Below, in pieces: positions 2,436 to 49,119 of a stretch of DNA of 64,000 nucleotides (positions are counted from its first letter, which is position 1; each line of letters begins with the position of its first letter). The position numbers were made by a program, and so were the translations under genes. The DNA comes from Ostreococcus lucimarinus (taxonomy: Eukaryota). Under the pieces are notes generated by a model. That model had not been told where the DNA came from and made no database searches. It saw only the letters and a list, made by a program, of their open reading frames with translations. The stretch lies in assembly GCA_000092065.1 (NCBI GenBank), contig CP000591.1. The stretch is one strand, 5' to 3'.

Positions 2436-4301
2436 ATGGCGACGAAACCGGGCGCGTTGTATGACTTCCCGTGGGCGGAGTGGGGATCGATGAAGTATGC
2501 GGTGTTTTTGCCGTTCGTGGCGACGGTAGCGCTCGGAAAAGACGATGGGGATTCGTTTTGTTGGCACTTGTTGGCGATCGCGGCGCTGCGGTACGCGAGC
2601 GCGCAACTTTGGATAAGCTTGTCGCGAGTGCACGCGTGGACGAGGAAAACGCGGATACAAGCCAGAGGGATCGACTTTAAACAGGTCGATAGGGAGGATA
2701 ATTGGGATGATTACATATTGCTCCAAACGCTGGTGATCGCGCTCGTGCATTGGATGCCGGGATTGGGGTTTAATAATTTCCCGGCGACGAATGAAAAGAC
2801 GGCGGTGCAGCTGTTGTTGTTGCACGCGGGGCCGACTGAGTTCATTTATTATTGGCTGCATCGCGCGTTGCATCATCACAAATTGTACAGTGCGTATCAC
2901 TCGCATCATCACGCGAGCTTTGTCACCGAACCGATCACCGGGAGCGTGCATCCGTTCATGGAGCACTTGATGTACACCGCGAACTTCGCCATTCCGCTCA
3001 TCGGGACGTGGGCGCTCGGCGGCGGCTCCATCGCGATGTTTTACATGTACTTGCTCGGCTTTGACATGCTCAACGCCATCGGGCACTGTAACTTTGAGTT
3101 CATCCCGCGTTGGTTCATGAGACTGCCGCTGATGAAGTACTTGATTTACACGCCGAGCTATCATTCGTTGCACCACTCGCGCGTGCACACAAATTTTTGC
3201 TTGTTCATGCCGCTGTACGACCACGTGTACGGCACAGCGGATGTAACGAGCGACGAGTTGTACGAGAAGGCGATCAATGGGCGGGCGGTACCGGTCACGG
3301 CGCCTGATGTGGTGTTTATGGCCCACGGAACTGAGTTATTGAGCGTGTTCCACTTGCCTTTCATGTTGCGCAGCTTTTCGTCTCGCCCGTTTGTCTCGCA
3401 GTGGTGGCTGAAACCGTTTTGGCCGCTGTGCGTGCCTTTTGTGCTTGTGTTGCGAATGTTCGGCAAATCTTTCGTAGCCGATCGACACCGGCTCAAGACG
3501 TTGAACTGTGAGACGTGGGTGACGCCCGCGTGGGGGTTTCAATTCTTCATCAAGAGTGAATTTAATCACATCAACAGGAAGATTGAGGAGGCGATTTTGG
3601 ACGCCGATCGCGCCGGAGTGAAAGTCGTCGGCTTGGGAGCGCTGAATAAGAACGAGGCGCTAAACGGGGGAGGCGCACTGTTCGTCAACAAGCATGGGAA
3701 GTCTCTGAAGACGAGAGTCGTGCACGGGAACACGCTCACGGCGGCGGCGATTTTACAGAAAATCCCGAGCGAGTGCAAGGAAATTTTCCTCACGGGGGCG
3801 ACGTCCAAACTTGGACGAGCGATCGCTCTTTATTGCGTGGAGAGAGGCATGCGTGTGGTGATGTACACAACGAGCGAAGAGAGGTTCGAAAAGATCAGAA
3901 ATGAAGCGGCGAAGAAGGATCAGCATCTCCTCGTGCAATCTACGTCCCTGAGCGACGGGGCAAAGATAAAGGACTGGGTCATCGGCAAGCACTGCCCGGA
4001 GAAGGATCAAAATATGGCGCCGAGGGGCGCGATATTCCACCAGTTTGTCGTGCCGCCAATCCCCGAAACGCGAAAGGATTGCGTGTACACCGACCTGCCC
4101 GCGTTCAAGCTTCCTAAAGAGGCAAAAGACTTCCGGTCATGCGAGATGACGATGAAGCGTGGTCACATTCACGCGTGCCACGCGGGCGCCCTCGTGCACT
4201 CGCTAGAAGGCTGGGATCACCACGAAGTCGGTGCCATCGACCACACGCGCATAGATACTACTTGGGAAGCGGCGCTGAAGCACGGATTCGCCTTGGCTTA
4301 A
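2436..4301 (+). CDS. CER1/CER3 (WAX2)-like protein: fatty acid hydroxylase superfamily domain plus WAX2 C-terminal domain (putative very-long-chain aldehyde decarbonylase)
   Basis: His-box motifs HRALHHHKLYSAYHSHHHAS, HSLHHS and HVYGT lie in an N-terminal polytopic domain. The C-terminal region VVGLGALNKNEALNGGGALFVNKHGKSLKTRVVHGNTLTAAAIL is typical of the CER1/CER3 WAX2 domain. ATG at 2436 (MATKPGALYDFPW). Confidence 0.75.
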   Translation: MATKPGALYDFPWAEWGSMKYAVFLPFVATVALGKDDGDSFCWHLLAIAALRYASAQLWISLSRVHAWTRKTRIQARGIDFKQVDREDNWDDYILLQTLVIALVHWMPGLGFNNFPATNEKTAVQLLLLHAGPTEFIYYWLHRALHHHKLYSAYHSHHHASFVTEPITGSVHPFMEHLMYTANFAIPLIGTWALGGGSIAMFYMYLLGFDMLNAIGHCNFEFIPRWFMRLPLMKYLIYTPSYHSLHHSRVHTNFCLFMPLYDHVYGTADVTSDELYEKAINGRAVPVTAPDVVFMAHGTELLSVFHLPFMLRSFSSRPFVSQWWLKPFWPLCVPFVLVLRMFGKSFVADRHRLKTLNCETWVTPAWGFQFFIKSEFNHINRKIEEAILDADRAGVKVVGLGALNKNEALNGGGALFVNKHGKSLKTRVVHGNTLTAAAILQKIPSECKEIFLTGATSKLGRAIALYCVERGMRVVMYTTSEERFEKIRNEAAKKDQHLLVQSTSLSDGAKIKDWVIGKHCPEKDQNMAPRGAIFHQFVVPPIPETRKDCVYTDLPAFKLPKEAKDFRSCEMTMKRGHIHACHAGALVHSLEGWDHHEVGAIDHTRIDTTWEAALKHGFALA

Positions 4302-4643: not shown

Positions 4644-5223
4644 CTAGTTGGCGAGCACTTCGCCCGTTTTCTTCAACACGCGAACCTTCTTGCCTCCCTC
4701 TTCCTTCGTGCCGATGCGCGACCGGACGGACTTCGCCTCGCTGTAGTGCATCACGTTGGAGTGATGAATCGGGAACTCACGCTGAATAATTTGTCCCGTC
4801 TCGCCTTCGCCGCGCGGCTTGACGTGCTTCGTCTTCACGTTAACATCCTTGCAGAGCACCTCCCCGGTCTTGGTGAAGACTTCCACCACGTTCGTCACCT
4901 TGCCTTTATCCGCCCCCGCGATGACGACGACCTTGTCGTTCGTCTTCACGTGCATCGGGATGCGCACCGGAAGTCCACGCGGCGTGAGCGCTTGCTTTTC
5001 CCACTTCTTCTTCGCCACGATTTCCATGCCGCTTCGGCGCGCCGCGGGCACCGGGCTCGAGACCTACGTCGTTCGCGTCGTGCGCGTCTGTCAGTCGTCG
5101 CTCGGGGGTGCTGATTCTAGCCTCAATCGCTTTTCCACCCTTCTCACGTCTCGCACGCGTCCCGCGCGCCACCGCACTGGACGCGTCGACGCGATTAATA
5201 CGCATCCACCGCGTACTCGTCAC
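4644..5223 (-). CDS. RPL24: Chloroplast-type 50S ribosomal protein L24 (uL24c). The mature part is 4644-5009. A putative transit-peptide exon at 5068-5223 would be joined through a 58-nt intron at 5010-5067.
   Basis: KKWEKQALTPRGLPVRIPMHVKTNDKVVVIAGADKGKVTNVVEV...KTKHVKPRGEGETGQII...IHHSNVMHYS...GKKVRVLKKTGEVL matches the plastid L24 KOW protein. The upstream ORF in another frame ends ...DAHDAND followed by GTAGGT, and the AG before AAGAAGTGG restores the frame. Alternatively the protein is unspliced from an internal ATG (MEIVAKKKW). Confidence 0.75.
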
Positions 5224-6617: not shown

Positions 6618-8825
6618 TCAGGACGCGTTCAGGATGGACTGTCGAAGTTGCGAAATCACCTGCGCGGGATTGGCGGCGCCGAAGACGGCGCTGCCGGCGA
6701 CGAGGACGTTGGCGCCGGCGCGCGCGCAGAGCTCGGCGGTGCTCGGATTGACGCCGCCGTCCATTTGAATGTCCAAGTCTGGATACCTCGCGCGGAGGGC
6801 GGAGACTTTGTCACACACCGCGGGGTTGAACTTTTGACCACCGAACCCGGGTTCGACGGACAAGCACAGGACCATGTCGACGAGACCGGCGTCGACGAGC
6901 TCGTACACGCCGCCGTCTTCGTCGCACGGCGTGGACGGTTTGCACGCCACGGCGGCGCGCATGCCGAGCGATCGAATGGTTTTGCAGAGCTCCTCTGCGG
7001 CGGTACCGCTGACAACTTCGATATGGAACGTCACGCTCGACGCACCGGCGGCGGCGAGCGCGGGAACGAGCGTCGCAGGATTGCTCACGCTCAAGTGACA
7101 ATCGAAGAACGCGTCGCGCGGGCCGACGCGTTTCGCCAAATCCGCCACCACGGGAGGACCGATGGTCAAATTAGGGACGAAATGTCCGTCCATGATGTCG
7201 ACGTGCAACCAATCAGCGCCTTCGTCGAGCATGCGGTTGACTTCGGAGGCTAAAGCGCCTTGGTCGGCCGCCAACAGTGACGGGCAAACGATGGCGCGTT
7301 TGGTCGTCGAAACCGCGGGCGCTCGGCGCGCGCCCCACGTCTCGCGGAATGACGGATATAGTCGTAGGTACGCGGCGTACACGTCGGCATACGCTGCGTG
7401 TGCCTCTGGGTTCGGACTGATGACGCGCGATTTGCGAACCATCGCCGCGACGGCTTCGCGCACGCTTCCAAACAACCCCGCGCCGAAGGCGGCGAGTATT
7501 GCGCAACCGAGCGCGGGGGCGTCCGAACACTCGGTGACGACATGCGGCACTCCCGTGACGTCGGCGTGAATCTGTAACCAAAGTTCGCTTCGCGTCGCCC
7601 CGCCGGCGATGACGACTTCCTTCGGTTCGTACCCTCCGCGGGTCATGGTTTCAAAAATCAATCGCGTACCGCAACACACGCCCTCCAAAATCGCACGGAA
7701 CACGTGCGCTTTCGAGTGCTTGAGCGTGAGACCGGAGATCACTCCGCGGCTGAGTGCGTCCACGTGCGGGGTTCGGTTGCCTTGAAAGTGGTCGAGCGCG
7801 ACGACGCCTTCGCATCCAGGCGGGATCGCGCTCGCTTCGCGGTTCATGTCGTCGTAAAACGAATCGCCGCCGCCGCATAAATTCTTAAACCAATTCACCA
7901 CGGACCCCGTGCTCGTCTGACCACCCTCGACGACGAACGGCGCGCTCTCCACGAGCGCGTTTCTATACGTCCCGAAGATACCCTTCGCGTGAAATTCCTC
8001 CTCCGCGACGCCCAAGTGCAGGTGCGACGAGCCCGTGATCAGCGCTAACTGCCCCGGTTCGATGACTCCCAGCCCGACCATTCCCACGAACGCGTCCGCG
8101 CCTCCCTGAATCACCTTCGTGCCCTCGAGCAACCCGCACGCCGCCGCCGCTCGTGCCGTCATCCCGCCCACCGCCGCGCCCATCGGTAATATCTCCTTCG
8201 GCCACTTTTCCACCAACTCCGCGCACCCAAGCTTTTCTAACATCGTCATCGGCGGTCTCCCGTCGCCGTCGAAGTGCCACCGCACGCCGACGTTGTTCAT
8301 CGACCCGCAGTACCGTCCCGTGAGCCACAGGTTTACGTAATCCTGATACTCGCAAATCATCGTCGCTCTGTCGTACCGCTCCCGGTCGTTTCGCTTCAGC
8401 CACAGCGCCTTGGGCACCATCCACTCCGCGCTCACCGGTCCCGCGCCCGCGCAGTTGACGCGAAGCGCGTCGTCTTCCGTCTCGACGCACGCCGTCGCCT
8501 CGTCGCTCGCGCGGACGTCCATCCACAGCACGCTGTTCCCGATCGCGTCGCCGCGCGCGTCGAGCGCGACGACCGAGCAGCACGTCGTGTCGACGCACAC
8601 GGCCGCGACGTCGCGCGCGTCGACGCCGCACAGGCGCCGCGCCTCGGCGATGGCGGTCGCGAGCCCGTCGAGCCACGACGCGGGGACTTGCTCGGCGCGA
8701 CCGGGCGCGGGGTGCGAGGTGGCGTACGGGACGTCGGCGAACGCGAGCGGGACGCCGGTGAGGGTGAAGACACCGGCGCGGATGCCGGTGGTGCCGCCGT
8801 CGACGCCGACGACGACGGGAGGCAT
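6618..8825 (-). CDS. Bifunctional protein: N-terminal FGGY-family pentulose (ribulo/xylulo) kinase fused to C-terminal ribulose-phosphate 3-epimerase
   Basis: N-terminal FGGY signatures VGVDGGTTGIRAGVF, LWMDVRA and GGQTSTGS...NWF. The C-terminal 220 aa, IVCPSLLAAD...HVDIMDGHFVPNLTIGP...FHIE...LSVEPGFGGQKF...DIQMDGGVN...GANVLVAGSAVF, is a complete RPE. One uninterrupted ORF of 735 codons with ATG at 8825. Confidence 0.8.
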   Translation of the reverse strand: MPPVVVGVDGGTTGIRAGVFTLTGVPLAFADVPYATSHPAPGRAEQVPASWLDGLATAIAEARRLCGVDARDVAAVCVDTTCCSVVALDARGDAIGNSVLWMDVRASDEATACVETEDDALRVNCAGAGPVSAEWMVPKALWLKRNDRERYDRATMICEYQDYVNLWLTGRYCGSMNNVGVRWHFDGDGRPPMTMLEKLGCAELVEKWPKEILPMGAAVGGMTARAAAACGLLEGTKVIQGGADAFVGMVGLGVIEPGQLALITGSSHLHLGVAEEEFHAKGIFGTYRNALVESAPFVVEGGQTSTGSVVNWFKNLCGGGDSFYDDMNREASAIPPGCEGVVALDHFQGNRTPHVDALSRGVISGLTLKHSKAHVFRAILEGVCCGTRLIFETMTRGGYEPKEVVIAGGATRSELWLQIHADVTGVPHVVTECSDAPALGCAILAAFGAGLFGSVREAVAAMVRKSRVISPNPEAHAAYADVYAAYLRLYPSFRETWGARRAPAVSTTKRAIVCPSLLAADQGALASEVNRMLDEGADWLHVDIMDGHFVPNLTIGPPVVADLAKRVGPRDAFFDCHLSVSNPATLVPALAAAGASSVTFHIEVVSGTAAEELCKTIRSLGMRAAVACKPSTPCDEDGGVYELVDAGLVDMVLCLSVEPGFGGQKFNPAVCDKVSALRARYPDLDIQMDGGVNPSTAELCARAGANVLVAGSAVFGAANPAQVISQLRQSILNAS

Positions 8826-15528: not shown

Positions 15529-18500
15529 TCACGGAGCGATGGTGTCTAAAGCCATGTAGGTATCGCACCAGGCGGTGTGCAGGGCGCTCGGTTCCGTCGC
15601 GTCGCGAATCGGCGGTACGCCGCGGCCGCGATACGCCGCGCGCGTGAGCTTTTCCACTTCCTCCGGCGGTCGTTCGTTCGCTAAGTTATCCCAATCGATG
15701 TCGCAGAGCAGCGCGGATCGCTTGACTAATGTGGCGTCGTGCATGCGGTCTTTTGGGTTGACCACGAGAAGCGCGCGAGCCAAGGCGACGGCTTTGGGAT
15801 CGGCGTCGCCGCGGAAGATCGTGGATAAATCGCACCGACAAATTGACTCGTACGTCTTGTGCGTGACTTTCATCCCGAACGGTGGCGTCCCGTTGAGTAA
15901 GTGCACGATGAACGTCCCGAGCGAAAACCAGTCCGCGCGTTCGTCGTGGCCGACGCCGCGAACGACTTCGGGCGCCATGTACGCCGCGGCGCCGCACGCC
16001 GTAAACGTCTTTCCGGGCGTGTCGTCCGTCACCGCGAGATGTTTAGCGAAGCGGAAGTCAGTCAACCGCAGCGCGCCGTGCTGATCGATCGTCATCGTCT
16101 CCGGGTCCATTCCTCGGAATACGATGTCCATGGCGTGGACGTACTCGAACACGAGCGTAAACGCGGCGACGTAGTACTTGACGACTTCGGGCTTGGAGCC
16201 GCCGCCGCACGCGATGACAGCTTCGAGCGCACATCTCGGCGCGAATGGGTACGGAATGGAGATGAAACTCGAGTCTTTCGATGGGATGGCGGGTATGGGA
16301 ATGAATGCCGGCGGCTTGGCTGAGCCCGCCGTGAGCATTGTGATGATGGCGCGCTCGCGCAACACGCCCTCGACTCGCGCGAGCGATTCTGTTCTCGCGA
16401 GCGAGATCTGCACCGTCGCCTCCTTAGACGCCCCCTTCGTTTCGCGCAAGTGACCGAGCAACGTCATGTACAGCGCCTCACGCGAGGCTCGCTCGTCGTC
16501 CCCGAAACTTAATCGCCGCTCGTGCGGATCTAAAGCGCGCTGGGGCGATCGGATGCGTTCCATCGACGACGATCGCTCGAGAGTGGCGCTCGACGTCCGC
16601 ACGATCGCCTCGGTTCCGGTGACGTTTGTTATATCGGTCAGCTTAACGCGCCATACCTCAACGTCGTCGCTGATGGCTTGAATATTAGTCGCACACGGCG
16701 CGCCACTTCTCGAGAGAAGCGCGCGTTCACCAAAATATTGCCCACTCGTCAACTTGAGCACCACCCTCGGCGTCTCGCTCTCGTCGCGCGCATTCGCACG
16801 CACGGTGCACGACACATCCCCCCTACTGATGATGTACATAGCATTTATCTGCTGTCCCTGACGCGCGATGAGCTCGCTTGTTTGAGCCTTTACGAGAGAT
16901 TTCCCGCGCTTATCGACGATGTTCGTGGCGATTCGGCGCAAGTCGCTGATGCTCACGGCTTTCAGCGCGTCCACGCCGCGCAGCGCGCTCGTGAGCGTGT
17001 TTACGCTCGGCTCGTCGTCCTCGCGCATGAGACGCGTGTAAGTGGCGAAGTCAAGCACCCAGAGGACCACGTCACTGTTCGCGGTGACGGTCTCGTGCGG
17101 ATTTTGGGCGTGCGCCATGCACTGTTCGTTGAAGCACATTCTGTCGCCGCCTTTGCCATACGTTCGCACCTTGACGGCTTCCTTCTTCTCCGCATTCTCG
17201 TCTCCCTCGTTCTCGACCCACGCGACGTTGTCGCGCCCCGTGAGAGTGCCACTCTGTACGGCATAAAGCGCACGCAGCGAATACTTGTCGTTTTGCGTCA
17301 CGACGACATCGCCGTCGTACACTCTTTTCCTGTACATCGCCTCCGCGACTTCGTTCAAAATCGCATCCGAGACGCCGATAAATAAGAATGATTGCTTGAG
17401 AATCGATAATAACGCCGATTTGTCCTCCGCGGTGGCGATGGACAGATCTCCCATCTGCTCTTCCAGTGAACCTCTCGTGTTGAACGAGATATCGGACGGT
17501 AAACCGTAAGGGTGCACCACGCGATAACTGCGGCGCGTTTGCATGGTGAACGACGGCACGACGCGACGTCGAGGTCTCGCCGACGTTGGGAACGGCGACG
17601 AGAGCTGGTTCGCGCGATCGGGAAAGTTGAACAGCGCACTGACGCTCACGGACTTTCTCGGCGTGACGGGATCGGGATCGGGATGGGTTTCGTCCGGGAA
17701 GTCTTCAATCAAGATGACGATGACGGTGATGTCGTCCGTGCGCGTCTCGTATTGAAGCCAGAGCTTGTACGATTCCACCACGAGCGCGATTGCGCTCTGC
17801 TGTGGATCGCTCGTCGCCATCGCGGCTTTGATCACGCTTGTGGACGGAATGAATTCGAAAACTCCATCTGAAGCGATCACGATCGCCTTCGTGTCTTTGT
17901 TCAAGCGCACGCGCTCGATTTCCGGCGTCGCGACGACGCCGATGCGCTCGGCGACGGCGTCGCCTATGGAACGAGTAAACGCCGTGCCAGGATACATCCC
18001 ATTCTTCGCCCACAGTCGCGGGGGATCGCCATCGTCGTCTTGCTCCGTCCCCCAACACTGCACGGTGGGATCTTTGAACCCCTCGAGCTGATCGAGCGTC
18101 ATCACGCGCGCGCCCGCCTTCTTCACCCGCTCGCACTCATCCGCGCGAAACGGCGTCTGATCCGAACTCAAATCCACCGTCTCCACCACAACCTCTCCCT
18201 TATCGTCCGCCTTCTCTATCCCCATCGTCGCCCGCGAGTCCCCCACGTTTATCACGTACAAATCCCTCCCCTTCACGTGCGCGATGATCCCCGTCGTCCC
18301 GCTCAACGAATCGTCCACCTCGCTCCTTCGCAGCGCCTCGTTCGTCGTTCGAAACGCCTCCTCGTACCCTTTCGCGTCCCCAAACTCTCGCTTCGCCATC
18401 TCCATCGGCACTCTCATCGCCGCGAACCTCGCGCACTCCGTTCCAAACTCCCCGTGTCCGTCGAAGACGCCGAAGACGCACTCGTCGTCGCGATCTCCAA

Positions 18501-18885
18501 ATCTCGCCTCGCTCACGTGCGCGTCCTGGTTCGCCTTGCTCAGCGCCTCTGGGTAGTACCCTCGCTGCGAGCACGCCGCGTATCGCATCGCGTACGACTG
18601 CGCGCGACCGCGTTCGTCCGTGAACGCCACTCGGACCGTCTTCGCGCCCTTGACGCCGGCGAGACGGGCGTTGTATTGCTCCTGCGTCAGCGGGCCGCCG
18701 CGCAGGCGCACTTGGTACCGCACGGGGGCGTCGTCCGTCGGATCGACGCATTCGTCGTCGTCGCGCGCGCGCGCGCGATCGGCGACGGGACGAACGGGGC
18801 GCGCGCGCGATGGAGACGCGGGCGCGCGAGGCGCCGCGTCGCGCGCGGCGCTCGCGGCGTCCGCGGCGGAGGACGCGCATCCCAT
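15529..18885 (-). CDS. Protein phosphatase 2C, two cyclic-nucleotide-binding-like domains and a protein-kinase-like (probably pseudokinase) domain, with an N-terminal MGC acylation motif
   Basis: PP2C motifs FGVFDGHGEFG, VGDSRA, ASDGVFE and DDITVIV. Two CNB-like domains (..YGKGGDRMCFNEQCM.., ..GQYFGERALLS..). The C-terminal kinase fold has YMAPE and DWFSLG, but FRGMDPET replaces HRDLKPEN, DFR replaces DFG and no VAIK lysine is evident. N-terminus MGCASS. Confidence 0.8.
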   Translation of the reverse strand: MGCASSAADAASAARDAAPRAPASPSRARPVRPVADRARARDDDECVDPTDDAPVRYQVRLRGGPLTQEQYNARLAGVKGAKTVRVAFTDERGRAQSYAMRYAACSQRGYYPEALSKANQDAHVSEARFGDRDDECVFGVFDGHGEFGTECARFAAMRVPMEMAKREFGDAKGYEEAFRTTNEALRRSEVDDSLSGTTGIIAHVKGRDLYVINVGDSRATMGIEKADDKGEVVVETVDLSSDQTPFRADECERVKKAGARVMTLDQLEGFKDPTVQCWGTEQDDDGDPPRLWAKNGMYPGTAFTRSIGDAVAERIGVVATPEIERVRLNKDTKAIVIASDGVFEFIPSTSVIKAAMATSDPQQSAIALVVESYKLWLQYETRTDDITVIVILIEDFPDETHPDPDPVTPRKSVSVSALFNFPDRANQLSSPFPTSARPRRRVVPSFTMQTRRSYRVVHPYGLPSDISFNTRGSLEEQMGDLSIATAEDKSALLSILKQSFLFIGVSDAILNEVAEAMYRKRVYDGDVVVTQNDKYSLRALYAVQSGTLTGRDNVAWVENEGDENAEKKEAVKVRTYGKGGDRMCFNEQCMAHAQNPHETVTANSDVVLWVLDFATYTRLMREDDEPSVNTLTSALRGVDALKAVSISDLRRIATNIVDKRGKSLVKAQTSELIARQGQQINAMYIISRGDVSCTVRANARDESETPRVVLKLTSGQYFGERALLSRSGAPCATNIQAISDDVEVWRVKLTDITNVTGTEAIVRTSSATLERSSSMERIRSPQRALDPHERRLSFGDDERASREALYMTLLGHLRETKGASKEATVQISLARTESLARVEGVLRERAIITMLTAGSAKPPAFIPIPAIPSKDSSFISIPYPFAPRCALEAVIACGGGSKPEVVKYYVAAFTLVFEYVHAMDIVFRGMDPETMTIDQHGALRLTDFRFAKHLAVTDDTPGKTFTACGAAAYMAPEVVRGVGHDERADWFSLGTFIVHLLNGTPPFGMKVTHKTYESICRCDLSTIFRGDADPKAVALARALLVVNPKDRMHDATLVKRSALLCDIDWDNLANERPPEEVEKLTRAAYRGRGVPPIRDATEPSALHTAWCDTYMALDTIAP

Positions 18886-19086: not shown

Positions 19087-22068
19087 CTAGAGCGCGTCGC
19101 GCAAGACGCCGTCGGCGCGGTACTTGTCCTTCTCGGCCTGCCGCGCTCGCGCCCTGTCGGGGTCGACGCGACGAATGCCTTGGATGCCCACGGTCGGGGG
19201 ACGACGCTCGCGTTCCCAAACTTCTTCTTCGTTGTCGATGTGGGTGGTGACGGAGAGCTTCGTGCCGCGTTTGGCGGCTTGTTCAATCTTTTCGCGAATG
19301 GCGTCGGATTGTAACGCGCTGAACGGGGCGGCGTCTTTTCCGCCGCCGGCGCCGCCGCTTTGGGAGCCGGACTTTCTAAAATCAAATACTTGTTTACCGC
19401 CGCCGCCGCCGCCGCCGTGCCACCCGCCAGCCTCCATGCTCAGACCGTTCGAGGCGATTTGTTGCAGCGACTGGTACACCGCCTCCACGTTCAACTCCAT
19501 GTTCAGTTGTTTCTCTTCAATCGTGTCGTTGCTGATGATGATGTGTGACACGTTCGACGCGGTGTCTTGGCCAACAACTTGCACTTCCTTGACAGCGATC
19601 ATGACTTGCGCGATTTGCTCTGAAATATTTACTATGTCGGCGTGCATTTGTTGCATCGCGAGCTTGATGGCGCCCATCGTCGCCCCGGGCGCCGCTCCCG
19701 AGACTGGTACATTCGTATCCTTGAATCCACCCGCTGTGACCGTTCCGATTGCACCAGCTTGCTCCCTCGCACGTCTTTTCGTATCCTCTTGGGCGCGTTC
19801 CTGCTGCAGCAACTCGCGCCAATTCGAGCACACGTTGCGCGTTGTTTCTTCTAAAAATCTTCGCATGTCGCACTCGCTCAACGCGATGCGCGCCATCTTT
19901 GGTTTGTTCAGCGCTTGTAGCGCGTGCAAAAACTCATCCTCGAAGTTACGCAATAGAGTCGGTTGATGTTGCGCGCAAATATCATAAAACACCGCGTGGT
20001 CCATGACGAGCGCCTCGACGTGTTTGTCAAACGGCATGGCGCACAACATGCCTTTATAGAACCCGGAAAGTAAACCGGGGTTGAGCACTGTGCCCGGGCC
20101 GCGGAGCAAACCTTTTTCTTCCGCGAGTTCGATTTGCTGTTCTCGCAATCGCTTGCGCTTGATTTTCTGTACGTGGGAGTGGTGGAATCCGGACGCCTCG
20201 TCGGGGGAATACGAAACTCTCCCGTTGAGCGTGATGATGAACTTATCCGCAAGTTCGTACGGATAGCATATACGTGCGCCTCGCGCGTACATGTGCGTAT
20301 CCATGGTACGACAGAGGATCTCTATCACAATCCCGTCGGGCTGCACCGTGCCATTGGCCTTTAAACCTATGGACAGCGCTTTACCGTAAATGTAAAAGTT
20401 GACGTCGGCGCGAATCGCCTCGGGGAGCGGTTGGATGATATCTCGGTTCACCAGTTTTTGAGGTTTCGCGGAAGCCTTGTAGTGCGACCGGACGCGCGAT
20501 TTCAATCCGTTTGGCATCTTGTGCTCGGACAAAAGTTCGCGTACGTGGTTCATGAGCACCGCGAAGCGATTCCCGGGCGAGTCTTCATCCATGGACATGT
20601 TCACGCCGGAGATGATGGCGGAAAATACAAAGCCCCCGGTGATCATCACGAGGATGGCTATGACGCGTTCATCGACAGTGGTCGGAACGACGTTACCGTA
20701 GCCTACCGTCGTGAGTGTTTGCACCGACCAAAACAACGCGGCAACGTACATTTCACTCTTGTGCGACTCTACACCGCTCGCGTCTTCGCGTTGAAAGTCG
20801 TACACGTAGGCGTACGCACACGCCATCCAGTGAGAAAGGAGCACTAAAAGCGCGAGCAAGCGCCCGAGAGTCACCATTTTATACACGCGCATAAGATTCT
20901 CTTGATAACGTTCCAAGATTCTACCCGTGCGCATCACGCGAAGTAGGCGCAGCATTTTGAACAAACGCAGCACCTCGGGCACTTGTGAATTCTCAGCCGC
21001 GGCGCCACACGCCGCCTCAGACTCCCACGAACACGTCAACGTGCCATCGATGCTGCGAGAAACGTAATCCACGGGGATTAGCGATATGGCGTCCGGAATG
21101 AACCAGCCTTTCAAGTAATGCTTTTGAATCTTCCACAAATTCGTCACGTAGTGAAAGTCGTCGTCATCGGCGCTCGTCTCCCAGTACGCCGTGAAGAAGT
21201 TGAAAAACATGTCAATGTAGAAATAAATATCGACCAGAAAATCCGCGACGTACCACAATCCGTACGACGGCTCGCTGAACCCGATGCGATAGGGCACGGA
21301 AATCGCGATGTACAGCAACAGGAAAATTTGTAGAAAATCCCAATACTGCCGCAGCTTCGTCGTCGGGTGCATGACGAATAACGATCTCGCCTCGTCGTCA
21401 TCGCCGTATTTCGCGATCGCCGAGGCTTCATCTTCGTCCTCATCGCTGTCCGCCGCGTTCCAATCGGCCTCGGACTCGTCGCCGTGATCCAAGAAATTTT
21501 CCAACCGGGTGGTATCAAACATCTTTTGCTTGTGCTTCTCCGACGCCGCCGCCGTCATCGCCGCCCTCGCCATCTTATTCTCATCTAACCGCCGCCTCGT
21601 GTCGCCCTCCTCCTTTTCGCGCAGCGCCTTCGCGCTCGTCGCCAACCCATGCTTCGCTCTCGCCGCGCTTCCCCGCGGCACGTTGACGATGCCCGCCTTC
21701 GCCGCCTCCTTCGCCCTTCGAATCGCATCCTTCACCTTCTCCGCCCGCGTCATCGCTCGCGTCCCGTTCGCCGCGTCGAGCTTTCCATCGCCATCCCCGC
21801 GCGCGCCCTCGTCGCTTCCCGCGCTGTCGTGCGCGCTCGCCGTCGTCGCGTCGCGCGCGTCGCTCGCGTTTGGTGTTGCGCCCGCGCCGAAGAATTCGTC
21901 GTCGGAATCGCCGTCGCGCGTCGCGCGCGTCGCGCGATCGCGCGTCTTCGCGCGCGCGCGCTCGGCGGCGGCCATCGCGCGCCTGCGCGGCGACGCGACG
22001 TCGCGACGACGCGGTGTGCGACGCGTCGCGCCGCGACCGACCGACCGACGCGCGCGTCCGTGCGCCAC
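19087..22068 (-). CDS. Voltage-gated K+ channel with a C-terminal cyclic-nucleotide-binding domain (EAG/KAT/AKT-like)
   Basis: Pore signature TTVGYGNVVP (GYG filter). S4-like segment LFKMLRLLRVMRTGRILERY. Six-transmembrane-helix topology. CNBD after the pore (RTMDTHMYARGARICYPYELADKFIITLNGRV). Long acidic and coiled-coil tail. Confidence 0.8.
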   Translation of the reverse strand: MAHGRARRSVGRGATRRTPRRRDVASPRRRAMAAAERARAKTRDRATRATRDGDSDDEFFGAGATPNASDARDATTASAHDSAGSDEGARGDGDGKLDAANGTRAMTRAEKVKDAIRRAKEAAKAGIVNVPRGSAARAKHGLATSAKALREKEEGDTRRRLDENKMARAAMTAAASEKHKQKMFDTTRLENFLDHGDESEADWNAADSDEDEDEASAIAKYGDDDEARSLFVMHPTTKLRQYWDFLQIFLLLYIAISVPYRIGFSEPSYGLWYVADFLVDIYFYIDMFFNFFTAYWETSADDDDFHYVTNLWKIQKHYLKGWFIPDAISLIPVDYVSRSIDGTLTCSWESEAACGAAAENSQVPEVLRLFKMLRLLRVMRTGRILERYQENLMRVYKMVTLGRLLALLVLLSHWMACAYAYVYDFQREDASGVESHKSEMYVAALFWSVQTLTTVGYGNVVPTTVDERVIAILVMITGGFVFSAIISGVNMSMDEDSPGNRFAVLMNHVRELLSEHKMPNGLKSRVRSHYKASAKPQKLVNRDIIQPLPEAIRADVNFYIYGKALSIGLKANGTVQPDGIVIEILCRTMDTHMYARGARICYPYELADKFIITLNGRVSYSPDEASGFHHSHVQKIKRKRLREQQIELAEEKGLLRGPGTVLNPGLLSGFYKGMLCAMPFDKHVEALVMDHAVFYDICAQHQPTLLRNFEDEFLHALQALNKPKMARIALSECDMRRFLEETTRNVCSNWRELLQQERAQEDTKRRAREQAGAIGTVTAGGFKDTNVPVSGAAPGATMGAIKLAMQQMHADIVNISEQIAQVMIAVKEVQVVGQDTASNVSHIIISNDTIEEKQLNMELNVEAVYQSLQQIASNGLSMEAGGWHGGGGGGGKQVFDFRKSGSQSGGAGGGKDAAPFSALQSDAIREKIEQAAKRGTKLSVTTHIDNEEEVWERERRPPTVGIQGIRRVDPDRARARQAEKDKYRADGVLRDAL

Positions 22069-22070
22069 AT

Positions 22071-22087
22071 CGTATGGGCAAACAGTA
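22071..22087 (-). promoter_or_regulatory. Fifth copy (reverse orientation) of the ACTGTTTGCCCATACG motif, in the K+ channel / IscA bidirectional promoter
   Basis: Plus strand reads cgtatgggcaaacagta; its reverse complement is tactgtttgcccatacg. Confidence 0.45.
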
Positions 22088-22159
22088 TAACGTTAATATA
22101 AACCATCGCCCCGACGCCGCGCCGTCGACGCGCGCGGCGCCGCGCACGCGCGCGCGCCG

Positions 22160-22594
22160 ATGTTCGCGCCCGCGACGCGCCGCGCGCTGACGCGCGCCGC
22201 GCGACGCGCGATGTGCGGCGCGCGCGCGTCCGTCGACGACGGACTGACGCTCACCGACGCGTGCGCGACGCGCCTGCGCGCCATCGCCGACGAAGACGGA
22301 AGCGCGCCCGCGCGCCTGCGGCTCGCCGTCGAGGGCGGCGGGTGCTCGGGGTTCAAGTACGAGTTCACCCTCGAGCGCGACGCGGCGACGGCGCGCGATA
22401 AGACGTTTCGAGCGGCGAACGGGGCGGAGGTGGTGGTGGATGCGATTTCGTACGAATTCGTCAAGGGGGCGACGATCGATTACGCGGAGGAGATGATCAA
22501 GAGCTCGTTCGAGGTGGTGAAGAATCCGCAGGCGGAGACGTCGTGCGGGTGCGGGGCGTCGTTCGGGGCGAAGGACGGCGCGTTCGGGGGGTGA
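22160..22594 (+). CDS. Iron-sulfur cluster assembly protein, IscA/HesB family
   Basis: LRLAVEGGGCSGFKYEFTLE ... SYEFVKGATIDYAEEM ... ETSCGCGASF with an R-rich presequence. ATG at 22160. Confidence 0.85.
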   Translation: MFAPATRRALTRAARRAMCGARASVDDGLTLTDACATRLRAIADEDGSAPARLRLAVEGGGCSGFKYEFTLERDAATARDKTFRAANGAEVVVDAISYEFVKGATIDYAEEMIKSSFEVVKNPQAETSCGCGASFGAKDGAFGG

Positions 22595-22778
22595 CGAGGA
22601 CGACGGAACGCGTCGGCGAACCGAAGACGGAAGCGCGGGAGGGGGCGCGGGGGGTAATTTTTTCTGTACCGCGCGGCGCACGGCGCGAGATTTAGGATAG
22701 GACTGCGATTGCAACACGACGATGGCTACGTTTACGAGACGACGACGGAGGGCTCGAGAGGGCTTCGATCGCGCGCGT

Positions 22779-23498
22779 CTACGCGGTCGCCGCGTCGATT
22801 TCCGCCGATACGCGCGCGGCGTCGCCCGCGGCGACGACGCGCGGCGTTCCCGCGGGAGGATCGCGACACATCTCCGGCCCAATCGTGGAATCGTCCACCA
22901 TGGTGAAGCACGGCACGTCCTTGAACTTGCCGTCGGCGTATTCGTGAATCTTTTTGACGCCGTCCAAAAACGGCAAGCTCACCATCGCCGCGAACTCGTG
23001 CACGCGCGCGCCGAGCTGATCGACGAGATTGAACCCCGCCAACGCCGTCCCACCCGTGGCGATCAAATCATCGATCAGAACCACGCGATCGCCCGCTTTG
23101 ACGCTCCCCAGGCGCATCACCGTCTCGTCCGTCGAATACTCGGTGACGTACGTCCCGCTCGACACCAGCACCCCCGGCAGCTTCCCAGCCTTGCGAATCA
23201 TCACGAACGGCACGTTCAGCGCCATCGCGATCGGCGGTCCGAACAGGAACCCTCGCGCGTCGAATCCCGCGATGTGCGTCGGTCCCGCCTCGCCCTGCGC
23301 GCGATACCTCGCGACGAACAGCTCCGTCACCGCGCGAAACACCTCGGGATTCTCCGTGATCCCGCTCACGTCGTAAAACGACGGCACGTCGTGCGGCGAG
23401 TACTCGGGTCCGTACCACGGCAGCGCCGCCGCGATCGCGCGCACCGCCGCGTCGTTTTGGTCCAAGCAAAAGTGATTTTCCCTGTCGCGCGCGCGCAT
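22779..23498 (-). CDS. APT: Adenine phosphoribosyltransferase
   Basis: IAGFDARGFLFGPPIAMALNVPFVMIRKAGKLPG...VLIDDLIATGGTALA is the PRTase type I signature. Confidence 0.85.
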   Translation of the reverse strand: MRARDRENHFCLDQNDAAVRAIAAALPWYGPEYSPHDVPSFYDVSGITENPEVFRAVTELFVARYRAQGEAGPTHIAGFDARGFLFGPPIAMALNVPFVMIRKAGKLPGVLVSSGTYVTEYSTDETVMRLGSVKAGDRVVLIDDLIATGGTALAGFNLVDQLGARVHEFAAMVSLPFLDGVKKIHEYADGKFKDVPCFTMVDDSTIGPEMCRDPPAGTPRVVAAGDAARVSAEIDAATA

Positions 23499-23724
23499 CC
23501 ATCCCGAACCGTCGTCAGCGCGTCGTTCGCGCGCGCGCGTCGTCGCGTCGCCGCGCGTCGATCGAGCGCGCGTTCGCGCTCGCGCGTCGCGCGCACCCGA
23601 GCGTTTTCACCGCGGGCGTCGCCATCGCGCGTGCGTCGTCGCGCGCGCGCGCGTCGAGGTGTGCCGACCGACGGCGTCGCCGCACGTCGCGACGCGCGTC
23701 GGACGCGCGCCGGACGCGCGCGCG

Positions 23725-24882
23725 ATGGCGTCGCGCGTCGCGTCGAGCGCGCGCGCGTCGTCGTCGCGCGTCGCGCGCGGCGAAGACGGCGCGAGGCGCG
23801 CGCGCGCGTCGGCGGTTTCGAGACGGCGCGCGGGCGCGGTCGGCGACGCGCGCGTGTGCGTCGAGACGGCGCTGCGCGACGACGACGAGACGTCGGGAGT
23901 CGCGGACGGGCCGGGGTGCTTCGCGCTCGAGGACGCGGCGGGCGCGGTGGTGTTCGTGGGGGGCGGGCGGCGCGCGCGGGACGCGCTGCGGGCGTACGCG
24001 GCGACGACGACGAGAGACGTCCGGAACGAGGTGTTCGTCGGCGCGGTCGAGACGCTGCCGAAGCGATCGAGATCGAGCGCGGTGCGAAACGCGATGAAGG
24101 CGATGCTCGAGGGGTTGGAGTACGCGCCGGAAGATAACGCGGCGGCGACGACGGCGGCGACGGCGGAAACCGTCGGATACGCGTTCTCGAGCGATCACCT
24201 GCGCGCGCTCGAGCGCGATGGGTACGTCGTCGTGGATGATTTGATATCGCAAGACGTCGCGCGGGCCGCCGCGGCGTCGGCGCGGGCGATGTACGATCGC
24301 GGGGTGATGCAGAATTTGCGACAAGAGGGCAGGGACGACGACGTCGCCGTGTTGGCGACGTCGAGCCTTCCGGCCGGGGACGAGTTCGCCGGCCTGCGGC
24401 CTTGCGTCGAGGCGTTGCTGCGCGTTCCGGACGATCTTCGACGCGTCGTCGCGCGCGTCGACGACGACGCGCTCGGTGCGGACGTCGTATCAAAAGTTCG
24501 CGCGTGTCGAGCCCCCGACCGCCTGATGCTCGCTCGATACGGCTCCGAGAGCTGTCGATACGTCCCGCATCTCGACAACGACCCCTCCGACGACGCGAAC
24601 GACGCCGGATCGCCCGGTTTACGACCATCGGACAGAGTGTTCACCCTGATCGCGTATTTGAACCCCGATTGGGACGCGACGCGCGGCGGTCGCTTTCGAG
24701 CCTATCGCCCCGGCGTCGCCGCCGACGCCGCCTCGCCGTCTGATTTCGTCGACATCGACCCGATTCTCGGCCGCGTCGTCGTCTTCGACGCCGCCAAGCT
24801 CTTGCACGAGGTTCGTCCGAGTTTTCACGACCGTTACGCCGTCACCGTGTGGACGCGCGGCGCAGAGCTTTTGCCCGCGTAG
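23725..24882 (+). CDS. EGL-9/PHD-type prolyl 4-hydroxylase (2OG-Fe(II) oxygenase; PhyA/HIF-P4H-like)
   Basis: C-terminal CRYVPHLDNDP...RVFTLIAYLNPDWDATRGGRFR...RVVVFDAAKLLHEVRPSFHDRYAVTVWT parallels the EGLN/PhyA catalytic core (HxD...H...R). First ATG at 23725 (the ORF-track start at 23659 is GTG). Confidence 0.7.
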   Translation: MASRVASSARASSSRVARGEDGARRARASAVSRRRAGAVGDARVCVETALRDDDETSGVADGPGCFALEDAAGAVVFVGGGRRARDALRAYAATTTRDVRNEVFVGAVETLPKRSRSSAVRNAMKAMLEGLEYAPEDNAAATTAATAETVGYAFSSDHLRALERDGYVVVDDLISQDVARAAAASARAMYDRGVMQNLRQEGRDDDVAVLATSSLPAGDEFAGLRPCVEALLRVPDDLRRVVARVDDDALGADVVSKVRACRAPDRLMLARYGSESCRYVPHLDNDPSDDANDAGSPGLRPSDRVFTLIAYLNPDWDATRGGRFRAYRPGVAADAASPSDFVDIDPILGRVVVFDAAKLLHEVRPSFHDRYAVTVWTRGAELLPA

Positions 24883-34222: not shown

Positions 34223-35764
34223 TCACGCCGCAACCGATTGAGCGTTCGCGTCGCCGAGCACCGCCTCGCTCGCAGTCGGCGGGGCGAGGATCTTCCTGCT
34301 CTCGTGGAAGTATTGATGCGGCGTGTGCACGCCCGCCTCGATTTCGACGCCGTCGTGAATCGCCGCAAACGTCATACCGCACGCGATTTGGTAGTGCATA
34401 TTCGTCGCCTTCTCGACAATCGCGTGCGACTTAGCACCAGAGATTTTCAACGTACCGAGCAACTCGTGCAAACGTGCGCCGTTATCCTTGACGCCAGACG
34501 TGAGCGTCTTGAACGGACAACCGTGCGCGTCCTTCACGCCCGGATCCGCTGCGATGCACTGACCGCACGCGTGCGGGGTGTAGTTGACGCGCTTCCCTTC
34601 CTTACCGTACGCGTGTCTGATACCATACGCGTAATCTTTTTCAAACTTCTCCGCGGAGCATTTCGGGTGCTTTGTGAACTCTGTCTTCCAAAACACGAGC
34701 GCCTGGTCCAGAGGCAAGCCGATGCCCTTCAAATACAGTTGCAGTTGTCGTCGACCGCCGTGCGTCAGGTGATGATCTTTCTTGAGCGCCTTGTAAAGCT
34801 GGCGCATGCACAGCGGGAAAGACTCTTGCGTGGCTTCGATGCCGGCGATCGACATCGTGCCGTCTTCGCCTTGGAAATCGTACCCGCTTCCCGATCGACG
34901 GTTGTGCACAGATTTCAAAAGCGGCGTCAAACGGTGAGCCTCCTTCTTTTCAAACTTGTTGAAGAGCGTGATGGCTTCGGCGACCATCTTGTTCAGCATC
35001 GTCTTAAACCGACCGAACACGAGTTGATCGAGGGTTTCTTTACGAATCCACGCGTTTCCGCCGATCAAGTACGCCCGTCTCGACTTGACGAGCGGGCACA
35101 CCTCTTCGAAACCGACGACGAACCAACGCGACGCCTCGCTCGCCGCTTCCTCGCACATCCTCTGGTACTCCATCGTCCCGAGCTTACCATCTTTACTGAG
35201 ACTTCGACGCATCTGCCTATACTCGTGGTCCGCCATCAAGACGTCCCGCAAATCGTCCCGTCTCTCCCGCACTTCCTTCTCGCTCGCCCGCGCGTAATCG
35301 TTAAACCCATTCGTCCGCATAAACTCCATCTTCGCGTCCAAACTCAGCTCACCGTACCGATACTTGAACAACTCCAACTCGTTCTCCCGAAACCATCGCC
35401 TGTGTTCTTCGCTTCGACAGCTCGCCAACCTCAACAAAAAATGACTCGTCGCGTCTCTCGCCGCGCCCTCCGCGTCAAACGTCCCCCCCGTCGTCCGTCG
35501 CATGTTATATTCCTCCTCCGCGCTCGCGATCGCCCGTTTCAATTCCTCATCCTTCTTCCCACCGCTTCGCGCGTCGTCGATCGCCCGCAAGACGCCGTAC
35601 CGATCCATCGCCGCGCGCTCCAGGTACTCGATGGAGCGTTCGTCATCCGGCGCGGTGTTGTACGCGTCCAACCGCGCCGCGTTTCCGCCGTACTTTCGCT
35701 CGAGCGCGGTCTTGGCGCGCGCTTCCGCTTTCTCTCGATTCGTGCGCAGCGCGCCGAAGACCAT
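34223..35764 (-). CDS. PRIM2: DNA primase large subunit (PriL/PRIM2)
   Basis: PLCMRQLYKALKKDHHLTHGGRRQLQLYLKGIGLPLDQALVFW...HACGQCIAADPGVKDAHGCPFK is the Fe-S cluster domain of the eukaryotic primase large subunit. ATG at 35764. Confidence 0.85.
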   Translation of the reverse strand: MVFGALRTNREKAEARAKTALERKYGGNAARLDAYNTAPDDERSIEYLERAAMDRYGVLRAIDDARSGGKKDEELKRAIASAEEEYNMRRTTGGTFDAEGAARDATSHFLLRLASCRSEEHRRWFRENELELFKYRYGELSLDAKMEFMRTNGFNDYARASEKEVRERRDDLRDVLMADHEYRQMRRSLSKDGKLGTMEYQRMCEEAASEASRWFVVGFEEVCPLVKSRRAYLIGGNAWIRKETLDQLVFGRFKTMLNKMVAEAITLFNKFEKKEAHRLTPLLKSVHNRRSGSGYDFQGEDGTMSIAGIEATQESFPLCMRQLYKALKKDHHLTHGGRRQLQLYLKGIGLPLDQALVFWKTEFTKHPKCSAEKFEKDYAYGIRHAYGKEGKRVNYTPHACGQCIAADPGVKDAHGCPFKTLTSGVKDNGARLHELLGTLKISGAKSHAIVEKATNMHYQIACGMTFAAIHDGVEIEAGVHTPHQYFHESRKILAPPTASEAVLGDANAQSVAA

Positions 35765-35824
35765 GGCGGCGTCGCCGCCGTCGTCGCGCGTCGCCGTGTC
35801 GCGCGATCGTCGAGCTGTCGCCGC

Positions 35825-36039
35825 GTCGCGATTTCAAATTTCGTGGCGTCGGCGCCGCGCGCGGTGCGATTTCGAGGGTCGGCCTCGCGCACCGCGCACT
35901 GTTTACCCATACGCGCGTCGCGATTTCAAATTTCGTGGCGTCGGCGCCGCGCGCGGTGCGATTTCGAGGCGTCGGCGCCGCGCGCGGTGCGATTTCGAGG
36001 GTCGGACCTCGCGCACCGCGCACTGTTTACCCATACGCG
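35825..36039. repeat. Tandem duplication (about 92 bp unit x2, the second copy carrying an internal 31-bp re-duplication) in the primase/36129-gene bidirectional promoter
   Basis: Unit gtcgcgatttcaaatttcgtggcgtcggcgccgcgcgcggtgcgatttcgagggtcgg[c/a]cctcgcgcaccgcgcactgtttacccatacgcg at 35825-35916 and 35917-36039. Each copy carries TTTCAAATTTCG and CACTGTTTACCCATACGCG. Confidence 0.85.
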
Positions 36040-36128
36040 TCAACGCGCGGACGCGGCGCGACGCGCGACGCGCGCGCGCACGTCGCGACGCGCGCGCGAC
36101 CGCGACCGCGACCGCGCGGCGACGCGCC

Positions 36129-37364
36129 ATGTCCGCGGCGCTGGCGGAGACGATCGCGCGCGACGCCGCGGACGGACGCGCGGGCGAGTACGACCTCGCG
36201 GGATTCGGCGAGGCGTGGGTCGACGCGCTCGTCGAGGCGGCGTTCGCGACGCCGACGCGCGCGAAAGGAGGGTTTTACGCGTCGTGCAAGTTCATCGTCG
36301 GCGGCGGGAAGAAGACGCGGGCGAAGTACGACGATGAGGTGGTGAAACACTTGACGGCGGCGCTGCGCGCGAGGGGGTTCGAGGACGACAGAGGCGCGAG
36401 CGCGTGCGAGGCGTGCCAAGGGACGTATAAGTACCAGCACGACACGGATAAGGATTTAAAATACTTGCACGTGTTTCCGAGGGTGACGCACGAGGCGGAG
36501 GGGGGGGAGGCGGCGGCGGCGGCGGGCGGGACGCAGTCGCCCGAGTATCGCGCGTGCGCGTGCGATTTGGAGGAGTTCGAGCGATTGGTGGAGATGTATT
36601 GTCCGAGCTTTTCGCAAAAGCGCGCGCTGTTGCGCAGGATGAAGGTGATGGAGCACGCGCTCGGGGCGCTGGAACAAAAGGTGATCGCGATGGAGAGCTT
36701 GAATGATCGCGAGCAGACGATGTACGACTCGATGGTTGAAGTCGCGGCGAAGATTGAGTTCTTACAACAGGCGCTGGACGACATGATCAAGAAGGGTCGA
36801 TTGACGAAAGGCGAACAAGGAGAAATCGTCGAAGATTTGGAGCTCAAGCTCGAAGATTTGAACCTGATGGTGAACGAGGCGAACGAGGAGGGGAAGCCGA
36901 AGCGCGCGGAGATGCTCGAGAGCAAGAAGGAAATCGTCGTCAAGAAGATTGACTCGGTGCGCGCGAAACCTCCAATCGTGTACACGGTGCCGCACGAACG
37001 CGAACTTTTGGACTTGAAGAAGGAGCTGAACTCGCTGAAAAAAATTGCCGCACAATCGAAAGGAAAGTTGATGAGCGGTGCGGACGCGGCGAAGTGCGCG
37101 AATATTCCCAAGCTCGAAGAGCGCATAGCGAATTTGGAAAACTCCGAGGAAAAAGGATGGTACGAGGACGAATGCCGAGCGCTTCTCTTTCCACCGGTCG
37201 CCGAAAAGAAAGCACCGGCGAAGGCCAAGGCGAGTGGCGCCAAAACCAATTCGGGATGGCTCACCAAGGCGGCAAAGGGCGGATCGCGCGGCGGAGGTGG
37301 ATCCGCGAAAGCTTCGTCGACTCGTGGTCCTTCCAACCCGTTCGCGATGCTCGGCGACGATTAG
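36129..37364 (+). CDS. Hypothetical coiled-coil protein
   Basis: ATG at 36129 (MSAALAETIARDAADG...). Heptad-rich central region (LEQKVIAMESLNDREQTMYDSMVEVAAKIEFLQQALDDMIKKG...). The upstream part of ORF 35502 is antisense to the primase gene and is not coding. Confidence 0.6.
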   Translation: MSAALAETIARDAADGRAGEYDLAGFGEAWVDALVEAAFATPTRAKGGFYASCKFIVGGGKKTRAKYDDEVVKHLTAALRARGFEDDRGASACEACQGTYKYQHDTDKDLKYLHVFPRVTHEAEGGEAAAAAGGTQSPEYRACACDLEEFERLVEMYCPSFSQKRALLRRMKVMEHALGALEQKVIAMESLNDREQTMYDSMVEVAAKIEFLQQALDDMIKKGRLTKGEQGEIVEDLELKLEDLNLMVNEANEEGKPKRAEMLESKKEIVVKKIDSVRAKPPIVYTVPHERELLDLKKELNSLKKIAAQSKGKLMSGADAAKCANIPKLEERIANLENSEEKGWYEDECRALLFPPVAEKKAPAKAKASGAKTNSGWLTKAAKGGSRGGGGSAKASSTRGPSNPFAMLGDD

Positions 37365-49095: not shown

Positions 49096-49119
49096 GATGT
49101 GACACCGCGACGCGGCAGC

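Follow-up and report, generated by a model that had tools for sequence, protein, structure and literature searches.

Why would a wall-less marine picoalga, which has no cuticle, carry an enzyme of the kind that makes cuticular wax alkanes in land plants, and what would this enzyme produce there? The question is raised by positions 2436–4301 of a 64,000-nucleotide stretch of Ostreococcus lucimarinus DNA, hereafter the window. An initial annotation of the locus had recognized a CER1/CER3 (WAX2) homologue and regarded its substrate and product as unknown. We propose that positions 2436–4301 encode the O. lucimarinus CER1/3, one membrane protein that would by itself carry out the two reactions of the alkane pathway of plants, most likely converting DHA-CoA to C21:6. 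We place the probability of this reading at about 0.87.

The reading frame and its surroundings

The coding sequence is a single unbroken ORF on the plus strand, without introns, running from the ATG at 2436–2438 to the stop codon at 4299–4301. Both the ORF list and an identical database translation indicate that it is complete, with 621 amino acids plus the stop. A longer, TTG-initiated ORF begins at position 2400 and contains 12 extra upstream codons. We consider the ATG at 2436 to be the true start because the N-terminus that follows it, MATKPG..., is kept in homologues of diatoms, mosses and streptophyte algae. Three database entries from O. lucimarinus CCE9901, a wall-less marine prasinophyte, have exactly this translation (XP_001420263.1, ABO98556.1 and UniProt A4S4G4), which bears out the earlier description of the host as a cuticle-less marine picoalga. 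The records for XP_001420263.1 and A4S4G4 are labelled "predicted protein" (RefSeq) and "fatty acid hydroxylase domain-containing protein". Several members of the protein's cluster carry the name "sterol desaturase/sphingolipid hydroxylase", which stems from automatic JGI naming.

The window is nuclear DNA of O. lucimarinus. Its ORF for SRP receptor beta matches O. lucimarinus A4S4G6 without a single difference, that for plastid L24 shares a 90% cluster with O. lucimarinus A4S4G5, and the UniProt accessions of CER1/3 (A4S4G4), L24 and SRP receptor beta are consecutive. The neighbours are unrelated housekeeping genes, namely CDC73, plastid L24, SRP receptor beta, a sugar-kinase/ribulose-phosphate-epimerase fusion and Nup96; further neighbours encode a PP2C-cNMP-kinase protein, an ion channel, an MCM protein and starch phosphorylase. 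Pfam scans of the surrounding ORFs gave no sign that CER1/3 belongs to a cluster of lipid or hydrocarbon genes, or to an operon-like context. As a side observation, several RefSeq models in the window look shorter than the corresponding uninterrupted ORFs, among them starch phosphorylase (876 versus 1126 aa) and L24 (127 versus 135 aa).

Two modules in one chain and their family

The N-terminal part of the protein contains a FA_hydroxylase domain (PF04116, aa 129–267, positions 2820–3236, plus strand, as are all features below), the presumed membrane di-iron module of CER1-type conversion of aldehyde to hydrocarbon. Its Pfam match (E = 2.8e-18) scores 67 bits against a curated cut-off of 31. 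Toward the C-terminus lies the CER1-like_C/WAX2 domain (PF12076, aa 450–618, positions 3783–4289; E = 3.8e-60), which reaches 202.8 bits where 28.3 would suffice. Both scores are well over their cut-offs, and the resemblance is therefore not due to chance. Three His boxes are present in the N-terminal module: HRALHHH (aa 142–148, positions 2859–2879), HSHHH (aa 155–159, positions 2898–2912) and HSLHH (aa 243–247, positions 3162–3176). Together with end-to-end homology to plant CER proteins, these features uphold the initial assignment of a full-length, two-domain member of the CER1/CER3 family.

The C-terminal region (aa ~290–621, positions 3303–4298) resembles acyl-ACP reductase (AAR) and would be the CER3-type module converting acyl-CoA to aldehyde. 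It includes a putative NADPH-binding motif, GATSKLG (aa 454–460, positions 3795–3815), and a putative acyl-thioester catalytic cysteine, Cys581, within HACHAG (codon at 4176–4178). In an alignment of 20 homologues, H142, H146, H243, H246, H247 and C581 are invariant, as are G454, T456, S457, K458 and G460. Position 455 is Ser instead of Ala in four sequences, and Leu/Ile exchange occurs at position 459 in one. A weak SDR likeness is found at the start of the C-terminal domain, in the form of a sub-threshold adh_short match (aa 449–515) and NCBIfam SDR matches. These SDR-type matches reflect the dinucleotide-binding beginning of this domain.

The AAR likeness emerges from profile comparison. 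The single protein, searched against the PDB, matched nothing beyond the N-terminal part of SDR proteins, and this weakly (E about 0.1); AAR came into reach only with a profile built from 20 diverse homologues. When this profile was compared with all PDB sequences, its top match was the cyanobacterial AAR 6JZU/6JZQ (E = 1.8e-6). In the profile alignment, GATGDIG of AAR aligns with GATSKLG of CER1/3, and C581 lies opposite the AAR cysteine for which entry 6JZZ has Ser. Thus, an aligned catalytic Cys and a glycine-rich nucleotide-binding motif, the two marks of an AAR-like fold, are both present. Together with the profile match, they support the published proposal of a thioester intermediate, NADPH reduction and an aldehyde product. 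The identity between the C-terminal module and AAR is just 15–16%, and the two systems differ in organization. Cyanobacterial AAR is a soluble, stand-alone enzyme that uses acyl-ACP and passes its aldehyde to ADO, an unrelated soluble di-iron protein, whereas the CER1/3 reductase shares one chain with the membrane His-box domain, and its substrate is believed to be acyl-CoA. The resemblance to AAR has already been published (Wang 2019, Chaudhary 2021 and Kojima 2024, as cited in PMC13326499).

AlphaFold models the N-terminal module as a helical domain in which long hydrophobic helices occur. A model of this domain by itself (pLDDT 81.7) had no significant neighbour in a PDB fold search, and the resemblance to Scs7p reported in the literature was not reproduced in either sequence or fold searches. 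At the level of the PF04116 superfamily, CER1/3 shares HX3H/HX2HH/HX2HH boxes with yeast Scs7p and sterol C4-methyl oxidase/C5-desaturase. Unlike CER1/3, those members hydroxylate or desaturate and have no WAX2 domain.

Homology searches recovered full-length homologues (120 matches listed), among them land-plant proteins of bryophytes and angiosperms, some named CER3, GL1 or aldehyde decarbonylase, which cover 100% of the query at 48–62% identity. PF12076 accompanies every match listed that covers the C-terminal region; among the 120, six appear without it, one being a fragment and the other five lacking a precomputed PF12076 annotation. Assignment to the sterol desaturase, C4-methyl oxidase or sphingolipid hydroxylase class was considered and rejected, given the WAX2 domain and the names of the matches, which are CER, GL1 and aldehyde decarbonylase.

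The position of the protein relative to CER1 and CER3 can be judged from its active-site motifs and from a tree. In a table of motifs from 20 sequences, the complete algal-type boxes HRALHHH and HSHHH occur in the O. lucimarinus protein, in the other algal sequences, in one Physcomitrium sequence and in one sequence designated "SM000176". Boxes 1 and 2 are degraded in four land-plant sequences, which comprise Rhododendron CER3 and the closest Marchantia and Physcomitrium sequences. Here box 1 reads HKCFHNN or HRALHTN and box 2 reads HSLHH or HSFHH, so that the middle His of box 2 is absent in these four most CER3-like sequences. The cysteine is kept in 20/20 sequences, the CER3-like ones included. 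In a neighbour-joining tree (583 ungapped columns, 100 bootstraps), the O. lucimarinus protein and three close environmental or NCBI homologues, presumed to be from Mamiellophyceae, form a clade with 100% bootstrap. The protein lies among the algal sequences, apart from the CER3-like group of Rhododendron, Marchantia and Physcomitrium.

The complete His boxes and the tree position rule out membership of the land-plant CER3 (WAX2) clade. No sequence named CER1 is present among the 120 matches listed. Proteins of the CER1 type retain their His boxes, have a divergent C-terminal domain that catalysis does not require, and depend on CER3; this type is argued against by the conserved Cys/NADPH site, which is essential in the O. 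tauri orthologue. A published tree likewise sets the CER1, CER3 and CER1/3 groups apart (PMC13326499). Judged by its sequence, the O. lucimarinus protein is of the unduplicated CER1/3 type and is the orthologue of neither CER1 nor CER3, because it combines full His boxes, the NADPH motif and the catalytic Cys in one chain.

Arabidopsis CER1 and CER3/WAX2 share the FA_hydroxylase plus WAX2 architecture and end-to-end homology with CER1/3, and the same two-step route, from acyl-CoA through aldehyde to the Cn-1 hydrocarbon, has been proposed for the land-plant and algal proteins. The division of labour differs. In land plants two paralogues share the work, CER1 contributing the His boxes and CER3 the Cys/NADPH site, and they act on C24–C32 acyl-CoAs to supply a secreted cuticular wax (PMC13326499). 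In contrast, algal CER1/3 has both active sites in one chain, needs no partner and yields an intracellular polyunsaturated C21 alkene (PMC13326499).

The O. tauri orthologue and the predicted product

An orthologue from the sister species O. tauri (strain RCC4221), with the same two domains as the O. lucimarinus protein, has been characterized by Baca-Porcel et al. (New Phytol 2026, PMC13326499; bioRxiv, October 2025). According to that study, the sole hydrocarbon of O. tauri is C21:6 (all-cis-3,6,9,12,15,18-heneicosahexaene), and six independent CRISPR knockouts of OtCER1/3 lost it completely with an unaltered fatty-acid profile. The authors judged DHA to be very likely the origin of C21:6. 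When expressed alone in yeast, OtCER1/3 produced C15:1, C17:1 and C17:0, and its activity was abolished by each of the mutations H142A, H155A, H243A, A455N/T456L and C581A. AtCER3 rescued the C581A mutant, while the His mutants were not rescued. OtCER1/3 interacted with itself in a split-ubiquitin assay and was able to heterodimerise with AtCER1 and AtCER3. Five algal CER1/3 proteins, each tested singly in yeast, all gave hydrocarbons. The same paper treats as hypotheses that an aldehyde is the intermediate, that a metal centre is present and that the enzyme resides in the ER (PMC13326499). That Ostreococcus has such a homologue was published as early as Sorigue et al. 2016, and Wang 2019 and Chaudhary 2021 placed it as the ancestor from before the CER1/CER3 duplication (all as cited in PMC13326499).

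The O. lucimarinus protein aligns with O. tauri XP_003081883.2 at 549 of 621 identical positions (88%), with 72 substitutions and no gaps, and both proteins are 621 aa long and fall in the same 90% cluster. Since the alignment has no gaps, residue numbers carry over directly. All six residues essential in OtCER1/3 (H142, H155 and H243 of His boxes 1, 2 and 3, A455 and T456 of the NADPH motif, and C581) are found at the same positions in O. lucimarinus, and the blocks flanking them are identical in the two species. The species of origin, the single-copy status and the six matching residue numbers suggest that XP_003081883.2 corresponds to the published OtCER1/3 construct.

We infer that O. lucimarinus makes the same C21:6 product as O. 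tauri, because the two species are congeners and because Ahmann et al. 2011 (as cited in PMC3877907) described from O. lucimarinus a Δ4-desaturase, the enzyme of the last step to DHA. The proposed preference for DHA-CoA is drawn from the knockout and not from enzymology, because OtCER1/3 made only C15–C17 products in yeast. A literature search for CER1 together with "lucimarinus" found no paper. The substrate and product, which the initial annotation had called unknown, can no longer be so described, given that the 88%-identical O. tauri orthologue is required for C21:6 (PMC13326499). Its suggestion of yeast expression together with a CER1 partner has likewise been overtaken: algal CER1/3 alone suffices, as already reported (PMC13326499), and no partner is needed because algal CER1/3 carries both the CER3-type reductase and the CER1-type decarbonylase activity. 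Essentially all of the experiments that it had proposed, namely phylogeny, yeast expression and gene-linked GC-MS, are already in the literature.

In the mechanism that we propose, CER1/3 would act as a single membrane protein, probably located in the ER and probably a homodimer. The C-terminal module (aa ~290–621) would first form a thioester between Cys581 and the acyl chain of a fatty acyl-CoA; a hydride from NADPH, bound at GATSKLG 454–460, would then release a fatty aldehyde. The N-terminal module, with its three His boxes presumably holding a di-metal centre, would then remove C1 of the aldehyde to give the Cn-1 hydrocarbon. The main cellular substrate would most likely be DHA-CoA (22:6), and the product the intracellular C21:6 alkene heneicosahexaene. 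For the O. lucimarinus protein, we infer the ER location as well as the thioester and di-metal chemistry.

Several other readings deserve consideration. The chemistry may be the same but directed to another substrate or product in O. lucimarinus, such as C15–C17 alkanes or alkenes, or to the release of aldehydes or alcohols in place of C21:6. The 72 of 621 residues that differ from the O. tauri protein would be compatible with this, but the species are congeneric, a Δ4-desaturase is described from O. lucimarinus, and the two proteins do not differ in any catalytic motif or in the residues directly around it; we regard this reading, the main rival, as unlikely. It is less probable still that the protein has one activity only, as a CER3-like reductase or a CER1-like decarbonylase, and requires a second protein as in land plants. 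The land-plant paradigm is indeed a CER1/CER3 heterodimer, and the ability of OtCER1/3 to pair with AtCER1 and AtCER3 (PMC13326499) fits such an arrangement. However, each of the five algal CER1/3 proteins was active alone in yeast, and mutations in either domain abolished activity (PMC13326499). In addition, both motif sets are intact in the O. lucimarinus protein, the gene is reported to be single-copy in Ostreococcus, and tblastn detected no second CER1/3 copy within the 64-kb window.

Two further readings have a very small probability. A sterol desaturase, C4-methyl oxidase or sphingolipid hydroxylase with an unrelated dehydrogenase tail could be imagined, as PF04116 is common to those enzymes and JGI names several cluster members accordingly. 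The strong PF12076 match (202.8 bits) and the plant CER homology over 100% of the length stand against it, as does the knockout of the orthologue, which loses its hydrocarbon with the fatty-acid profile unaltered (PMC13326499). The initial annotation had itself considered the combination of a sterol-desaturase-like N-terminus with a C-terminus outside the WAX2 family; the C-terminus was found to lie within PF12076, and this reading is already effectively refuted. An inactive relic or pseudogene is just as improbable, and nothing in its favour came to light. The reading frame is unbroken and no essential residue has been lost; the same protein, letter for letter, turns up in an MMETSP transcriptome and on over 200 environmental contigs, and homologues across the Mamiellophyceae are 74–88% identical to it. 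A bifunctional CER1/3 that most likely converts DHA-CoA to C21:6 is thus the reading that we adopt.

Relation to FAP and significance of CER1/3

The relation to the photoenzyme FAP adds a functional context. The initial annotation had remarked that microalgal hydrocarbon production is otherwise attributed to FAP, which agrees with the literature in that CER1/3 and FAP are mutually exclusive across 99 green-algal genomes, and each of four Ostreococcus genomes has one CER1/3 and no FAP (PMC13326499). The Mamiellophyceae are reported to be without FAP. The two enzymes are functional counterparts: FAP converts a fatty acid to the Cn-1 hydrocarbon in algae, and in vitro it makes the same C21:6 from DHA (PMC13326499). 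Unlike CER1/3, FAP is an unrelated, light-driven, soluble plastid flavoenzyme of the GMC family, with free fatty acids as its substrate (PMC13326499). CER1/3 would take the place of FAP, which is absent from the Ostreococcus genomes examined.

A separate observation concerns diatoms. Homologues from Cylindrotheca closterium and Nitzschia are 63–67% identical to the O. lucimarinus protein, compared with 56% for Pyramimonas and 60% for Tetraselmis. In the neighbour-joining tree, the diatom sequences form a clade with four Ostreococcus-type sequences and one MMETSP sequence (100% bootstrap), ahead of other green algae. The Cylindrotheca gene is intronless and lies on a 154-kb genome contig with a diatom-like GC content of 46–48%; because of this contig size and composition, we do not attribute it to contamination, and we regard the diatom homologues as genuine nuclear genes. 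The identities and the 100% bootstrap grouping suggest a transfer from prasinophytes to raphid pennate diatoms. Such a transfer is a tentative proposal, somewhat doubtful at present, and the transferred gene might encode an enzyme behind the C21:6 long known from some diatoms. Chaudhary 2021 had already drawn attention to two-domain proteins in both diatoms and cryptophytes (summarised in PMC13510223).

The gene at positions 2436–4301 is explained, and the function of its orthologue was already known from the O. tauri work of 2025–2026. The practical value of the present analysis is an upgrade, by orthology, of the annotation of XP_001420263.1/A4S4G4. The broader interest of CER1/3 is twofold. 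As the unduplicated form from which the wax-alkane machinery of plants descends, it has evolutionary interest, and it is a light-independent alternative to FAP for hydrocarbon synthesis in algae. Both points were established experimentally in O. tauri in 2025–2026.

Reductase module and start sites of CER1/3

The reductase module of the Ostreococcus CER1/3 protein extends well beyond its Pfam annotation. A fold resembling that of cyanobacterial acyl-ACP reductase (AAR) spans approximately 330 residues (window 3303-4298, + strand), and 295 of the 340 AAR residues could be aligned with the module. The Pfam CER1-like_C match (aa 450-618) is about 160 residues shorter than this fold. Therefore, the Pfam model covers only the C-terminal half of the module.

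For Ostreococcus-like CER1/3, several gene calls from metagenomes exceed the 621 aa of the O. lucimarinus protein by 25-32 residues, as in the environmental relatives P0002, P0005, and P0007 (646-653 aa). The additional length probably reflects upstream alternative starts selected by prokaryotic gene callers. Such starts would resemble the TTG at window 2400, upstream of O. lucimarinus CER1/3.

Neighboring reading frames and gene models

The starch phosphorylase ORF (window 37412-40792, - strand) encodes 1126 aa with no interruption, and public data contain an identical sequence. The named O. lucimarinus RefSeq protein in the same cluster, XP_001420443.1, has only 876 aa. Compared with the intact ORF, this model is probably truncated by loss of its N-terminal part. 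For plastid ribosomal protein L24 (window 4644-5051, - strand), the ORF counts 135 aa from its first ATG and the RefSeq model XP_001420431.1 has 127 aa, a small disagreement over the start codon.

Two neighboring ORFs join several domains in a single chain. The first (window 6618-8825, - strand, 735 aa) combines an FGGY sugar kinase, represented by both its N- and its C-terminal domain, with a ribulose-phosphate 3-epimerase. Its relatives carry the JGI name "ribulokinase/ribulose-phosphate 3-epimerase", and an exact sequence look-up listed no NCBI accession for the full-length fusion protein. The second (window 15529-18885, - strand, 1118 aa) unites PP2C phosphatase, cyclic-nucleotide-binding, and protein kinase domains.

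An ATG-initiated ORF of 620 aa (window 35502-37364, + strand) matched no Pfam family at E <= 1e-5. Since other long ORFs overlap it on both strands, this ORF may not represent a gene. Several overlapping long ORFs also occur on both strands at window 22001-24000 and 48001-50000, as is to be expected of GC-rich sequence; each of these 2 kb stretches has approximately 71% GC, compared with the window mean of 62%.

CER1/3 in raphid pennate diatoms

CER1/3 genes without introns are present in raphid pennate diatoms (proteins P0031, P0027, and P0040), including Cylindrotheca closterium (L001:8001-9863, contig CAKOGP040002325.1, GCA_933822405.4). Their occurrence in diatoms was previously recorded by Chaudhary (2021), according to the summary in PMC13510223. 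The contigs that carry the diatom genes are large and host-like in GC, and the gene products share 63-67% identity with the Ostreococcus protein. In the neighbor-joining tree, the diatom and Ostreococcus-type sequences fall within one clade with 100% bootstrap, ahead of other green algae. Taken together, these sequence comparisons suggest a transfer of CER1/3 from a prasinophyte to diatoms, and point to the diatom protein as a candidate enzyme for the diatom C21:6 hydrocarbon.
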